A stretch of DNA of 64,000 nt from IMG/VR virus record IMGVR_UViG_3300015259_000001, one strand, 5' to 3'. The position numbers were made by a program, and so were the translations under genes. The notes under the pieces are model-generated. The model ran no database searches. It worked only from the letters and a program-made list of their open reading frames with translations, and was not told where the DNA came from. Shown here piece by piece: positions 2,772 to 14,492 of this stretch (within the stretch, counting starts at the first letter, position 1; each line of letters opens with the position of its first letter). The stretch comes from a virus.

Positions 2772-3063
2772 TTACACACGCCTTACGCTAGCAGCTAATA
2801 GAACTATAACATCTGCTAGTATTGTTGTTTTTGGCTGGTCTGTAACTAGTTCAAGTGCTACCCAACGTACAGTAACGTTTCAAGACAAAGATGGTAATGT
2901 TTATCAGGATGTTGTTATTGGACCCGGTAATGCGGGTGTTAGTTCATTCGAAAAAAGCAATATACCATTTCTTGCTGCAAACGGATTAACTGTAGCTATC
3001 AGCGCAGCCGATGCAGATGTTAAATTCACTGTATTCCATACTAATATCGCCGGCGCGAGTTAA
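2749..3063 (+). CDS. Small beta-rich virion protein, paralog family A (with 14624 and 15530)
   Basis: Shared pattern (I/T)VFG...V..qD......v.p....F/W(L/I)A..GL.(V/I)...V.V.VF with the other two copies. Confidence 0.65.
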   Translation: MLTTIAPNYTRLTLAANRTITSASIVVFGWSVTSSSATQRTVTFQDKDGNVYQDVVIGPGNAGVSSFEKSNIPFLAANGLTVAISAADADVKFTVFHTNIAGAS

Positions 3064-4798: not shown

Positions 4799-5181
4799 TG
4801 GCTAAGAAACTACCTAAAGGTGCTCAATCTCTTAGTGATATCGCTAAAATGCGAGGTAGAGGAGGGCAAATACTTAGCAGAGAACGAGTTAGAAGTAATG
4901 TATTATTTTCGGGTAATCTCCCTGAAGAAACTAGAAAAGGTGTAAAAGCATGGGGGGTTAGTAAGACTGCTAAGAAAGTTGTTGGAGATCCTGAGGTTCT
5001 TAAAGCTATAACTAGGTCTGTATATCAAAGATCCCATATGGCAGAACAACTTGCTAGGAAAGCAAGTAAACTTGGAGCTATAGGACAAATAGCTACTCTA
5101 CCATCTCAACTAGAAGAGTATAAAGAACGCATGAAGCCTCTTCATAAGAAAGAGCAAGAACGAAGTGCTAGAGGTATTTAA
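4798..5181 (+). CDS. Basic hypothetical protein
   Basis: K/R-rich 127 aa, TAATG coupled on both sides. Confidence 0.6.
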   Translation: MAKKLPKGAQSLSDIAKMRGRGGQILSRERVRSNVLFSGNLPEETRKGVKAWGVSKTAKKVVGDPEVLKAITRSVYQRSHMAEQLARKASKLGAIGQIATLPSQLEEYKERMKPLHKKEQERSARGI

Positions 5182-7385
5182 TGGCTAATCAGCAGCTAAA
5201 CGAGAAATTTAAACAGGGTCAGTTATACCTAGCTGATCATCTTAAATGGATGGATCCCGCAGCCGCAGCAGCTATTTCTAGTTATGCTAATGCTGTAGAT
5301 ATTAATCGCCAGAGTCGAATGTGGCGTAGATCTTTAGGTTGGGTAGAAAATATATTCTTCGGTGCAGGTAAGCACTATGTAGATGATATTCTCATATCTC
5401 GATTGTCTAGAGACGGTAATACAGGTGAAATATCTAGCTTACGCGATTCTGCACGTAATATGCCTAGACCAGTAAATGATTTACTTGGTCGGTATATTGA
5501 GACTAATGTTGCCCTTTTAACAGAAAATAGACCTCGTCCCCGTGTAACAGCTAAGAGTGATCGGCGCGACGATATGAAATCGGCAGAGCTTTCAGAGTTA
5601 ACCATGGAGTATCTATGGGAAGCTCTAACTATGCCAGAAAAACATCGTGAACTAGCTCGAATGATACTTTATTGTGGAACGGCGTGGCTTGAGGTCTTTT
5701 ATGACGAACTGGCTGTAAGACATCCAGTAGGGGGACAAACTGAAGAAGAAAGTTCCTTCGCTGTTCCTAGCGAAGAGGGGGAACCTGTAAATATAAATTT
5801 CAGTAGAACAGTAACCTCTCGAAGAGGTCAAAAGTCTAAGATTGAATTCGGAGAGGTTGTTGCTAATGTTATCTCTCCTTTTGAAATGCACTTACCTATG
5901 GTTCATTACTGGAACGGTGAAGATATGGGATGGGTGCTTAGGGAGTATTATACTCCTATTTCAGCTTTACAAGATAAGTATGGTTCTTCTGGAACTACAG
6001 GAGTTCTAACTAAAAAGAATGGTTGGAATATTGATGCTCTTAAGGAATTACGAGATGGAGTAGGAGGTAAAGGTAGTGTCTCTCCGCAGAATTTGCCCTT
6101 ATGGTGGTATGAACGGCTTACTGATCTCGTTGAAGGTCCGGGGCCTTCTCTTTACGTTGGTACTCCTGAAACTTGGTCGGGCTATACTGTAGTTAGAGTA
6201 TTCGATAGAAAGCCTTCTCCAATGTGGCCTAATGGTAGAACTATTATAGTAGCTGGAGATCAACTTCTATATGACTCACCTAAAGATAAAGGTGCTAGAG
6301 CTTTTGACCCCCGCTGGCCTAATCGTTGGCATCCTTATATAAGATATCATTGGGAATCAATGATCGGTAGTATATATGCTAGATCTCTAGTATCTAAATT
6401 GCTACCCAAGATTAAAAGAGTTAACAATATAGATACAACAGCAATAATGTATCGAAGAACAGTACCCATTGCATCATGGATTGTACCTAAAGGTACTGTT
6501 GTTGTTGAAGACTTCTTTACAGGTGGGCAGGGTGGGCAGATACTCGAATACGATCCTAGACGAACCAATAATCAGGCTCCCGAACCAATATTTCCTGCAG
6601 CTTTTCCTGATGCTATTCTCAATGAAAGAGCAACTCAGATCGCAGAAATGGAAGCAATTGCAGGTACAGAAGGAGTTCTTCGTGGAGAACGTCCTGAAGG
6701 CGTTAACTCTGCTACTATGTTAGAGGTACTACGAAAGCAAGCTTTGGCTTCTAGATCTGCTATTCTTCAGGCATGGGATGAATCCTTACAGGATACCGGA
6801 ACTGCTCTACTTCAGGAAACTGTTAAGCACGTTAAGAAAGACAAACGTTATGCTGAGCGTATTCGTTTGCTTGCGCGCGAAAAGGGCATTAGCCGTATGA
6901 CTATACAGGATTTTAGCGGCTCTGATCTACAAGATAACGTTATTGTTCGAGTAGATACTGCCAGTATGGCTCTTGTATCTAAGGAAGCTAGACAACAAAG
7001 AGTACTCGAAGTTCTACAATATCTACCTAATCTAATGAATGTACCGCTAGGACTTCAGCAAAATATGTTCGACGAACTACAGATTAAGGGAGATCTAAAC
7101 CCCGCTGGACCTGATGTTGATAGAGCTAAGGCAATGATCGTCTGGATTAAGAACGGCACATTTGAAAGAGTTATACCGTTCCCAGAGGATAACCCCTATG
7201 TATTCCACGAATTGCTTGTAGCTGAAATGAAGGACGAGTCTTTCTATGATTGGCCCGAACAGTCACAGATGATGCTATTCGAGATGGTAGGACTATACCA
7301 GCAACAGATTGAGCTAATCGAGAAACAGCAACTAGACATGCAGAAGAAGATGATGCAAGAGGGTGGCGGTGGACAGCCAGCTTAG
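5181..7385 (+). CDS. Portal protein (P22/podovirus-like)
   Basis: 734 aa upstream of scaffold/MCP; ENRPRPRV, ISPFEM, GERPEGVNSA, helical barrel-like C-terminus. Confidence 0.85.
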   Translation: MANQQLNEKFKQGQLYLADHLKWMDPAAAAAISSYANAVDINRQSRMWRRSLGWVENIFFGAGKHYVDDILISRLSRDGNTGEISSLRDSARNMPRPVNDLLGRYIETNVALLTENRPRPRVTAKSDRRDDMKSAELSELTMEYLWEALTMPEKHRELARMILYCGTAWLEVFYDELAVRHPVGGQTEEESSFAVPSEEGEPVNINFSRTVTSRRGQKSKIEFGEVVANVISPFEMHLPMVHYWNGEDMGWVLREYYTPISALQDKYGSSGTTGVLTKKNGWNIDALKELRDGVGGKGSVSPQNLPLWWYERLTDLVEGPGPSLYVGTPETWSGYTVVRVFDRKPSPMWPNGRTIIVAGDQLLYDSPKDKGARAFDPRWPNRWHPYIRYHWESMIGSIYARSLVSKLLPKIKRVNNIDTTAIMYRRTVPIASWIVPKGTVVVEDFFTGGQGGQILEYDPRRTNNQAPEPIFPAAFPDAILNERATQIAEMEAIAGTEGVLRGERPEGVNSATMLEVLRKQALASRSAILQAWDESLQDTGTALLQETVKHVKKDKRYAERIRLLAREKGISRMTIQDFSGSDLQDNVIVRVDTASMALVSKEARQQRVLEVLQYLPNLMNVPLGLQQNMFDELQIKGDLNPAGPDVDRAKAMIVWIKNGTFERVIPFPEDNPYVFHELLVAEMKDESFYDWPEQSQMMLFEMVGLYQQQIELIEKQQLDMQKKMMQEGGGGQPA

Positions 7386-12052: not shown

Positions 12053-12094
12053 GAGGTCACCATGTCCCTCCCCCATGGTGACCTCATTTTTTTT
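12053..12094 (+). terminator. Intrinsic terminator
   Basis: Perfect 12-bp stem GAGGTCACCATG/CATGGTGACCTC, loop TCCCTCCCC, then A and T8. Confidence 0.85.
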
Positions 12095-12100
12095 ATAAAG

Positions 12101-12127
12101 TTGCAAACCTTATAAATATATGATAAT
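12101..12127 (+). promoter_or_regulatory. Possible sigma70-like promoter for scaffold/MCP
   Basis: TTGCAA then GATAAT with a short 15-nt spacer; resembles the 19011 promoter. Confidence 0.35.
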
Positions 12128-12143
12128 CTAAATATAGGAAGTA

Positions 12144-12243
12144 AACTTAATCTATCGCTTTATGCGTTGCCATAAACCTTCCTTGGCGTAAAGATAAGTT
12201 AGATTCGGCAAGATCTCCAATTGCCGTAAACTAGGAGATAACA
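12144..12243 (+). promoter_or_regulatory. Structured 5' leader of the scaffold gene with an SD-sequestering pseudoknot
   Basis: Stem CGGCAA(12206-11)/TTGCCG(12221-26); loop ATCTCC(12213-18) complementary to GGAGAT(12234-39); upstream stems CTTTATGC/GCGTAAAG and AATCTA/TAGATT. Confidence 0.6.
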
Positions 12244-13188
12244 ATGGCGAGTAATACAGATGATCTAACAAAGGCTTTAGAGGCAGTAGCCGAAGAAGCT
12301 GAAGTAAAAGATGATCAATCAGAATCCGCCTCTGATGAAGGTAGTGACGAAAAGGAAGCTTCAGCGGAAGCATCCAAAGGCAAGGGCAAGTCTCAGGCAG
12401 TTCCCTATAGTCGTTTCAAAGAAGTAAACGAGAAATATAGTGATTCTGCTAAAGCAGTTGAAGAACTGAATCAGAAACTTGTTCAGCGCGACGAAGAGTT
12501 ATCAAAGTTAGTCCATCTGCTCTCAGAGCGTGAAAGCGCTAATAAGACCGTAGAAAAGATTAACGAACTCTACACCACGAAACCAGAACTTCGAGAACTT
12601 ATTGATACGCTGGATGCAGCGGTAAAAGGTCAAGAAGTCGCTATTTCAAAGGCTGAAGATAAGAAAACCGAGGCAGAAGCCAAGGGTGACTTTAAAGCAG
12701 TCAAAGAGATAGAAAAGGTTACCAAGCAACTTGAGGCCACGAAGAGTGAACTTGAGCAGAGCTTGGCCGAAACTCAGGCTGATCTAATCTTAGATAAGGC
12801 TGACCGGATACTGGAAGGGTACTTTGGTAATCTCCCAGAGCAGTATGGAGATGACGACAAGCGGGTCCTATCGGATCGCCTAGTTGACAAGATCAATTGG
12901 GATGAAATCGAGAAAGATCCTAGTAAGTTAGTTTCTGTACTCGCCAGAGACTTCAAGTCAACGGTTGAATGGTATGGCGCACCCCGAGGGGCTAGTAAAG
13001 CTGAAGTAAATGATGAAACAACTAAAGAGGCTACCAAAGAGCCTACGGTCGATGACCTTAGAAAAGCTAATTGGGGCAAGTTGAAGGTTGTAGAAGACGC
13101 AAAAGGTAGAAAAGTTCTCCCTGCTGTATCTGATGATGACTTCACTAAGGCCCTAGCTAGAGCTATAAGGCAAGACAATAAGCGATAA
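12244..13188 (+). CDS. Capsid scaffolding protein
   Basis: Acidic disordered N-terminus, VPYSRFKEVN motif, long coiled coil, directly upstream of MCP. Confidence 0.8.
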   Translation: MASNTDDLTKALEAVAEEAEVKDDQSESASDEGSDEKEASAEASKGKGKSQAVPYSRFKEVNEKYSDSAKAVEELNQKLVQRDEELSKLVHLLSERESANKTVEKINELYTTKPELRELIDTLDAAVKGQEVAISKAEDKKTEAEAKGDFKAVKEIEKVTKQLEATKSELEQSLAETQADLILDKADRILEGYFGNLPEQYGDDDKRVLSDRLVDKINWDEIEKDPSKLVSVLARDFKSTVEWYGAPRGASKAEVNDETTKEATKEPTVDDLRKANWGKLKVVEDAKGRKVLPAVSDDDFTKALARAIRQDNKR

Positions 13189-13219: not shown

Positions 13220-14431
13220 ATGACTAATTTCCAGACATTGGGCGATATGCTTCTACGACGTTATGTCGTAGACTTCATCGCTCAGGCACAGCAGCTATCG
13301 ACGCCGATTTATTCGATGCTGCGGGAAAACACGCGCTTCCAGCCTTCGGGTGATGGTGCGTACTTCCCAATCCGCATCGACGGTAATGAGGCCGGTGGCG
13401 GATGGCGCGGGACTGATGATAACGCGCTTCCTACTAGCTCAAATGAACGCATCAAGCAGCACAGAGTACGCCCAAAGAAGTACTACCATGTAGTAGAATT
13501 CTCGGGTCTCGCTGAGGCTGTATCCGCTCGTGGCGGCGAAGATGCATTCGCAGCCGGTATTACTGACGCACTTTCTGCGGCAGTAAAGCGTGCCGGTGCT
13601 AACTTCGAGGTTACGTTCCTTCGTGGTGATGGTACTGGCCGTCTAACTAACGTTAACGGCACTCAGGCCAGCGTAAGCACTCTTGACGTAGATGATGCTA
13701 GACCTTTCCGCGTAGGTCAGGTTGTTGTTTTCCTAAGCAACAGCACTGGTTTAAAGCAGGCTGGTCCAGTTACCGTAACATCTAGATCGGTTGCAAACGG
13801 TACCATTTCGGTATCGAGTGCAGTATCCGTAACGGATAATGACGGTATCTACATTTCCGGTGAGCAGAGCGAGTCTGCACCTCCGACCGAGGTAACGGCT
13901 CTTGGTCTACCAGCCATTGTAAACAATACTGGTACGATCTATAACCTCAGCCGAACAACTTACCCAATCCTTCAGTCGAAGGTTATTGCGGCAAGCTCAA
14001 CGGCTTTGGATGAGTCGCTCCTTAGACGGCTCCGCAAGCAGCTATTGACTGAAACCGATGTTGGTTCAATGGACGGGTTCGCCCTCATTTCCAACTGGGA
14101 TCAGTTTGATCGCTACACGGAAATCGCTCTTCCATTCAGACGCTTCAATGATATGAAGCTAGAACTTGGTGCCGAGCAGTCGGTAACTACGTTTGAGGGT
14201 CGCCCTTGGTACATTTCTTGGGCTGCTCTACCTGATGAGGTCTTCATGATCCGAATGGACGCAATCGAGCGCGGCGTCGTAAGGCCCCTTTCGATTGATG
14301 AGCGCGTAAACATGGCATGGGTACCCGGTACTGACTCATTCACCGTACTCCTCAAGATGTACGCTGAGAACGTAGCCAGAATCGTTAACCAGACGGCTAA
14401 GATTACGGGCCTAACGACTCCTACGTACTAA
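13220..14431 (+). CDS. Major capsid protein (HK97 fold inferred)
   Basis: 403 aa after scaffold, followed by a strong terminator; more C-ending codons than neighbours; FLRGDGTGRL. Confidence 0.85.
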   Translation: MTNFQTLGDMLLRRYVVDFIAQAQQLSTPIYSMLRENTRFQPSGDGAYFPIRIDGNEAGGGWRGTDDNALPTSSNERIKQHRVRPKKYYHVVEFSGLAEAVSARGGEDAFAAGITDALSAAVKRAGANFEVTFLRGDGTGRLTNVNGTQASVSTLDVDDARPFRVGQVVVFLSNSTGLKQAGPVTVTSRSVANGTISVSSAVSVTDNDGIYISGEQSESAPPTEVTALGLPAIVNNTGTIYNLSRTTYPILQSKVIAASSTALDESLLRRLRKQLLTETDVGSMDGFALISNWDQFDRYTEIALPFRRFNDMKLELGAEQSVTTFEGRPWYISWAALPDEVFMIRMDAIERGVVRPLSIDERVNMAWVPGTDSFTVLLKMYAENVARIVNQTAKITGLTTPTY

Positions 14432-14454: not shown

Positions 14455-14492
14455 AAAGAAGGCTAGGATTTCGGTCCTAGCCTTCTTTTTTT
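14455..14492 (+). terminator. Intrinsic terminator after MCP
   Basis: AAAGAAGGCTAGGA-TTTCGG-TCCTAGCCTTCTTT then T-run. Confidence 0.9.

Follow-up and report, generated by a model that had tools for sequence, protein, structure and literature searches.

Several described leader RNAs share part of their architecture with the element considered here. In the class I preQ1 riboswitch (preQ1-I, RF00522), as in SAM-II and preQ1-II, a small hairpin loop pairs with the purine tract of the Shine-Dalgarno (SD) sequence across an A-rich tail, and the resulting H-type pseudoknot is expected to mask the SD. In E. coli, S15 regulates rpsO by stabilising an mRNA pseudoknot that takes in the initiation region and whose energy differs little from that of simple hairpins. 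Autoregulation of the phage P22 scaffolding protein, the product of gene 8, was inferred genetically; to our knowledge this control, which is post-transcriptional, has been known genetically since the 1970s-80s, with no RNA operator defined and no RNA site mapped. A phage leader pseudoknot near an mRNA 5′ end is described for T4 gene 32, where it serves autogenous translational control and is mentioned in PMC3014915 and PMC10690425. Structured candidate RNAs 5′ of phage structural genes are a known kind, with GP20-a and GP20-b (RF02991, RF03003) as examples and a further 8,495 unnamed IMG/VR candidates in PMC10690425.

The locus that we compare with these systems lies in a window of 64,000 nucleotides, the whole stretch of DNA that was analysed, from the IMG/VR record IMGVR_UViG_3300015259_000001; the virus record as a whole has 121,061 bases and is rated complete. 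Our main and best reading, at a probability of roughly 0.55 and argued from sequence, is that positions 12136-12246 form a conserved, structured leader at the 5′ end of a late mRNA with two genes, for a scaffold and then for the major capsid protein, and that this leader would act in cis on the scaffold cistron as a throttle or operator of its translation.

Like preQ1-I, SAM-II and preQ1-II, the leader has a hairpin loop that can pair with the SD across an A-rich linker, but it has no match to their covariance models, and its pairing segment, at the 3′ end of the loop, abuts the stem (P4) and thus leaves no ligand pocket. It differs from preQ1-I also in that the gene downstream is structural and scaffold-like, not one for queuosine or preQ1, and in that a large junction domain precedes the hairpin. 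A reading made earlier from the letters of the window alone (the sequence-only reading) had seen the likeness to preQ1-I and had judged that the loop did not fit that consensus; in agreement with this, RF00522 gave no match at E up to 10 in the 136 nt searched or in 10 relatives. The rest of Rfam 15, which covers preQ1, SAM-II, GP20-a/b and ribozymes, likewise matched neither the 136 nt of the window, at E up to 10, nor ten diverse relatives. With respect to Rfam 15 the leader is new. The likeness to the rpsO operator is one of architecture, the sequences being unrelated. In T4 gene 32 a single-strand binding protein nucleates at the pseudoknot, which lies far from the ribosome-binding site (RBS), whereas here one pseudoknot involves the RBS. 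With GP20-a/b and the candidates of PMC10690425 the leader has in common that it is a candidate cis-regulatory RNA found by comparative genomics directly 5′ of a phage structural gene; it differs from GP20-a/b in that their models do not match it and the downstream protein has no Phage_GP20 domain. With P22 gene 8 it shares the kind of gene and a P22-like head module.

The scaffold-capsid mRNA would have its own promoter and a terminator on either side (Table 1). The downstream terminator was found by a terminator scan; the upstream one, whose 9-nt loop exceeds the 8-nt limit of that scan, was read from the sequence. From the promoter-like site, the transcript is predicted to start at about 12134-12137. 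We call the product of the first gene a putative scaffold on the basis of gene position, composition, a nearby P22-like portal and a weak lead in the Atlas to a scaffold cluster; the protein has no family match, and no GP20 domain was found in it at E up to 0.1. The portal is a 734-aa open reading frame at 5181-7385 of the P22-like portal family (PF16510, E 1.4e-8), and the head module is therefore P22-like, at least for the portal. The capsid reading frame also matches Pfam Phage_capsid, below the cut-off of that family.

Table 1. Positions of leader elements and neighbouring features in the window, and of endonuclease genes in relatives (locus handle before the colon)
Feature	Position	Strand	Details
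Intrinsic terminator, upstream 86-aa gene	12053..12094	+	12-bp stem, C-rich 9-nt loop, 8-T run
Promoter-like site	12101..12129	+	TTGCAA, 17-nt spacer, TG, TAATCT (or GATAAT 12122-27)
PK1 5′ strand AGGAAG, predicted mRNA 5′ end	12136..12141	+	Pairs with CUUCCU 12178-83
P1 5′ strand AACUUA(A)UCU	12144..12153	+	A12150 bulged; all 10 P1 pairs changed on both sides
P2 hairpin CGC-uuuau-GCG	12156..12166	+	94.7% of cells paired; double changes in 4/5 pairs
P3 hairpin UGCCA / UGGCG	12168..12188	+	Loop 12173-83 with PK1 3′ strand CUUCCU 12178-83; MAFFT and model-fitted alignments
P1 3′ strand AGAUAAGUU	12192..12200	+	Closes the three-way junction
P4 hairpin	12206..12226	+	CGGCAA 12206-12211 / UUGCCG 12221-12226; covariation, R1 model
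PK2 5′ strand AUCUCC in P4 loop	12213-12218	+	Exact complement of GGAGAU
A-rich linker UAAACUA, pseudoknot L3	12227..12233	+	UAAA conserved among leaders
Shine-Dalgarno region GGAGAU, PK2 3′ strand	12234..12239	+	Read from sequence; duplex energy
Putative scaffolding protein gene	12244..13188	+	ATG at 12244; 314 aa, acidic, coiled-coil-like; directly 5′ of capsid gene
Major capsid protein gene	13220..14431	+	phrog_14242, E 1e-13
Strong intrinsic terminator, end of scaffold-capsid unit	14455..14488	+	Terminator scan
LAGLIDADG (LAGLIDADG_2) endonuclease genes between scaffold and capsid	L085:1713-2432, L016:516-1190		
HNH endonuclease genes between scaffold and capsid	L037:1882-2475, L040:1070-1798		

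The leader folds into P1-P4 and PK1 and stays with the scaffold gene

Among deposited phages, BLAST found no DNA relative, the sole match being the capsid of a Microbacterium phage at 32% identity, and 185,579 species genomes held no prophage relative. IMG/VR and JGI metagenomes from soil, groundwater and sediment supplied about 100 loci in which the capsid protein is 60-97% identical, and from these uncultured relatives we assembled 59 unique scaffold leaders. The CGGCAA/TTGCCG hairpin on which the sequence-only reading had centred is present, and it is conserved with compensatory changes; on this comparative evidence it is the 3′ module of a larger predicted fold of roughly 110 bases (12136-12246). 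The further stems that had been noticed upstream are P1, P2 and P3, which covary. Parsing all of the leaders gave a common fold in which P1, a long-range helix of 8-11 bp, encloses P2 and P3 with very short junctions, and in which the loop of P3 pairs with a purine tract just 5′ of P1, a pairing that we call PK1.

Support for P4 comes from alignments that were not fitted to any structure. In the unbiased MAFFT alignment A3 the stem is 87% paired, compared with 20-42% of cells when one partner is slid, and its covariation of 0.359 was reached by none of 500 column shuffles, which gave 0.108; alignment A4 agrees. The two variable pairs of the stem run through GC, CG, AU and UA with no unpaired cell (pair 7-27 in A3, for instance, is GC in 34 leaders, CG in 14, AU in 5 and UA in 2), while the two outer pairs, C-G and G-C at the base, are invariant. 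For the fold as a whole we used a full-leader model, R2, that was seeded on one clade (A6) and that retrieves 41 leaders from all clades, the window among them (E 3e-4). Within A7, the alignment of these 41, which is fitted to the model and hence biased toward the modelled structure, 92.5% of cells are paired, 22 of the 24 pairs show changes in both partners, and covariation reaches 0.672, where shuffled columns give 0.192 and slid ones 0.06-0.12.

PK1 changes in concert across clades, from UGGACG:CGUCCA through GAGAGUG:CGCUCUC and GAGACGA:UCGUCUC to CGGGCG:CGCCCG. Counted in fixed columns of A7, it is 71.8% paired with a covariation of 0.217 against 0.156, figures blurred by one-base register shifts, so that a permutation of partners free of register is the fair test. 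By that measure the strands bind their own partners at −7.44 kcal/mol and permuted partners at −4.57 ± 0.29, with none of 5000 permutations as low; with 8 divergent representatives the p value is 0.0008. In 31 of 40 relatives a -10-like hexamer precedes the first PK1 base by 3-12 nt, and PK1 thus involves the extreme 5′ terminus of the transcript as predicted.

When 15 leader segments were compared all against all, P1, P2, P3, P4 and PK1 alone were strongly sequence-specific (z −10 to −18), and no conserved, mutually exclusive pairing appeared in this test, contrary to the suggestion of the sequence-only reading that the leader is an alternative-fold switch. The TTGCC that it had proposed as a competitor for GGCAA does lie at 12167-71, but its role is another: it supplies the 5′ strand of P3, pairs with UGGCG at 12184-88 and covaries there, and the P3 and P4 5′ strands average −0.8 kcal/mol against each other across the family. 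Two candidate pairings of our own were also rejected: a 5′ hairpin, “A”, uses the same bases as the 5′ strand of P1, and the P3 loop, considered as a second anti-SD, is the partner of PK1.

RNAfold recovers P1-P4 from the window sequence alone when the SD is omitted, and the stability of the single leader sequence is unremarkable (z −0.39 and z −1.2). RNAalifold predicted no structure from the raw MAFFT alignment of 59 leaders, which is too ragged, and a blind scan of column pairs in the leaders was too noisy for use. Few unpaired positions, about 3-4, are at least 80% conserved, A12162, U12167 and A12190 among them; the U-G pair that closes P3 is conserved as well.

The element is also specific to its place. 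R1, a covariance model of the P4 module, has one match in the window (E 0.002), one in the 121-kb genome and one in each relative locus, where it invariably precedes the scaffold homologue. Endonuclease insertions before the capsid gene do not part the leader from the scaffold gene, and it is kept where scaffold identity is as low as 23-31%. Two other matches are spurious, a weak one of R1 at 5755-5784, inside the portal reading frame, and one in the record G003, inside a long reading frame. A scan of IMG/VR for the exact pattern of P4 plus UAAAAGGAG picked out 16 sites, all of them unrelated and lacking the full leader. Taken together, the comparisons establish the fold of P1-P4 with PK1 and its tie to the scaffold gene, and this fold is unusually well supported for a phage leader.

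Probable pairing between the P4 loop and the ribosome-binding site

The sequence-only reading had given P4 a loop of six bases, ATCTCC, exactly complementary to GGAGAT over the scaffold SD across a UAAACUA linker. Complement and linker are both as described; ATCTCC is part of a loop that has 9 nt in all (GAUCUCCAA in the RNA, GATCTCCAA in the DNA, 12212-12220). We call the pairing of this loop with the RBS PK2. In the window the loop:RBS duplex, with six perfect pairs, has an energy of −9.3 kcal/mol, against −2.8 ± 1.5 for shuffles of the loop, none of 300 being as good. Every one of the 59 leaders has the hairpin at the same place, with the pattern U-U-C-G...C-G-U-A-A-A, and its SD 3-11 nt further 3′. 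By lenient criteria, complementarity between a hairpin loop and the RBS is found in 80% of the scaffold leaders and in 25% of 388 other SD-bearing gene starts from the same loci that served as controls (Mann-Whitney p 9e-16).

Across the family the mean loop:SD energy is −5.35 kcal/mol, compared with −3.59 for shuffled loops and −5.04 for the loops of other leaders; the difference between own and foreign loops is small, composition being enough for a pyrimidine-rich loop to pair with a purine-rich SD. Permutation of partners gave −5.28 against −4.78 kcal/mol (p 0.013, or 0.029 with representatives). Of the pairings whose covariation across scaffold leaders was followed, P1-P4 and PK1 are strong and PK2 is weak (segment test z −2.2), as SD sequences are nearly invariant. 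The loop classes nevertheless track their partners: CUCC occurs with GGAG, CCC with GGGG(G), and CUCUUCA with a GGAAGA SD. In one clade, with loops ACCCA and AUCCA, merely 2-5 pairs are feasible, with a bulge or mismatch.

A further class of 13 leaders has a CAUC loop and no anti-SD; here the SD abuts the hairpin, and a G stands at −1 before the AUG in 13 of 13, as against none of the 46 leaders that lack the CAUC loop. The CAUC can therefore pair with GAUG at the start codon. On the capsid tree the loop classes span deep lineages, and the CAUC class forms three groups on an unresolved backbone, so that one to three origins are possible.

The lengths of the parts also suit an H-type pseudoknot. 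Stem 1 is a real, conserved hairpin (P4), and the lengths of loop and linker are sterically compatible with crossed stems. The hairpin-to-SD linker grows with the P4 stem (Spearman 0.51, p 3e-4, ignoring phylogeny), from a mean of 5.2 nt at 4-bp stems to 9.1 nt at 6-bp and 10 nt at 7-bp stems, and it is never shorter than the stem length minus 2. The anti-SD segment lies at the 3′ side of the loop, with an L2 of 0-3 nt in all leaders except one. The A-rich linker and the invariant outer pairs of P4 would fit minor-groove triples. Duplex energy, linker scaling and placement in the 3′ part of the loop thus bear out the H-type geometry that had been proposed, with a loop able to pair with the scaffold RBS. 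In the nested minimum-free-energy fold a loop:SD helix replaces P4; P4 and that helix are near-isoenergetic (−7.6 and −6.5 kcal/mol), so that one might form in place of the other and not together with it. The complementarity and the geometry of PK2 are established, sequence comparison gives PK2 overall moderate support, and we consider it likely that the pseudoknot forms in vivo.

What the leader may do

Scaffold and capsid are needed in a set ratio, yet they are encoded on one mRNA, and a leader that masks only the scaffold RBS would explain how this ratio is set or how it is subject to feedback. Under the throttle or operator reading, module 1 (12136-12200) would form the three-way junction of P1, P2 and P3, with the P3 loop pairing back to the first bases of the transcript, and the mRNA 5′ end would thus be buried. 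In module 2 (12206-12239), the 3′ part of the P4 loop would pair with the SD across the A-rich linker, or, in the CAUC subclass, with the start codon rather than the SD. Judging from these complementarities, P4 and PK2 probably mask the scaffold RBS; with the RBS occluded by module 2, initiation at the scaffold gene would be throttled, and might be controlled separately from the capsid cistron that shares its mRNA. We infer that PK2 would lower translation and that it may be stabilised or opened by an effector acting in trans, for example free scaffold protein. Switching by an alternative RNA fold is not indicated; with no conserved alternative fold and few conserved unpaired bases, the leaders give no direct sign of the mode of switching. 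Four helices and two pseudoknots have been kept while the scaffold has drifted to about 25% identity, and they offer a compact, testable model for RBS-masking pseudoknots, for bacterial mRNA folds that bury the 5′ end and possibly for scaffold autoregulation. If the leader is a plain constitutive attenuator and stabiliser, it would be a useful but ordinary addition to the catalogue of RNAs.

Alternatively, the pseudoknotted junction may serve to bury the 5′ end and so guard an abundant late mRNA from decay that depends on that end, P4 being just one more hairpin and the match of its loop to the SD incidental or a matter of fine-tuning translation. Structures at the 5′ terminus do stabilise bacterial mRNAs, as in the ompA leader, and in most relatives the 5′ strand of PK1 begins at the predicted start or a few bases from it; PK1 and P1-P3 are the strongest-covarying parts of the leader, and conserved unpaired bases are few. 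A simple 5′ hairpin would be sufficient for this purpose, however, and stabilisation leaves unexplained the scaling of the linker, the placement of the anti-SD in the 3′ part of the loop, the CAUC:GAUG subclass and the constant distance of P4 from the SD (3-11 nt). We regard this stabiliser reading as possible, if rather unlikely. By analogy, a junction and pseudoknot that bury the 5′ end might also make the leader an alternative kind of element, a bacterial-phage counterpart of exonuclease-resistant RNAs.

A narrower form of the operator reading is autogenous: unassembled scaffold protein would bind the leader, stabilise PK2 and repress its own translation, as in P22 gene 8. The position of the element agrees with this, for it is tied to the scaffold gene rather than the capsid gene, it overlaps the scaffold SD or AUG, and it is always directly 5′ of a scaffold homologue. 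The head module has a P22-like portal, and autoregulation in P22 is on record as an entry (Wyckoff & Casjens 1985) in the reference list of PMC2115188. Recognition by shape is suggested by the conserved U-G that closes P3 and by the two basal pairs of P4, C-G and G-C, which are invariant, but the P4 pairs are equally well explained by A-minor contacts of the UAAA linker. The RNA fold is constant while the scaffold proteins diverge to 23-31% identity, and the scaffold is acidic, both of which argue against binding by the scaffold. We also know of no dedicated leader in P22 itself that is comparable to 12136-12246. We hold the autogenous operator only tentatively, and with the same reserve its extension to assembly sensing, in which free scaffold or another procapsid component would recognise the junction and P4 and lock PK2 over the RBS; if true, scaffold autoregulation would for the first time have a defined RNA operator.

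That the junction and PK1 form a small-molecule aptamer, with P4 and PK2 as its expression platform, is improbable. A junction and pseudoknot beside an SD-masking pseudoknot do resemble translational riboswitches, and the fold is kept over wide sequence divergence. In a riboswitch one would expect numerous invariant bases outside the helices, together with an alternative pairing to the platform that is conserved; the leaders have about 3-4 unpaired positions conserved at 80% or more, which argues against a small-molecule pocket, and have no conserved, mutually exclusive pairing of aptamer and platform. There is no Rfam match, and a structural gene downstream suggests no ligand. Least probable is an element that acts on transcription, such as a put-like processive antiterminator working on RNA polymerase just past the promoter: the leader is structured and immediately 3′ of the promoter, but the unit contains no internal terminator, the next one standing behind the capsid gene, at a point where transcription is expected to end, and the pairing with the RBS would go unexplained.

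Surroundings of the leader in relatives

In five relatives (L023, L096, L097, L111 and L010) the promoter of the leader fits a TGnTATACTAT late-promoter motif (TGCTATACTAT, TGATATACTAA), and 12121-12129 of the window is a degenerate copy of it (TGATAATCTAA), with the -35-like hexamer TTGCAA 17 nt upstream. Three distant, AT-rich phages (L002, L003 and L006) have a scaffold-like gene with 34-38% identity over the N-terminus, and about 60 nt upstream of position 3001 a CGUGG...CCACG hairpin, with UUAAAA between it and the SD. This P4-like hairpin lacks the anti-SD loop and the upstream junction domain, and the R1 and R2 models give no match there. Free-standing homing-endonuclease genes stand between scaffold and capsid in several relatives (Table 1) and are absent from that position in the window. 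In some relatives tRNA genes lie shortly 3′ of the capsid gene, as at L031:5962-6037 and, in a four-gene cluster, at L055:4018-4383.
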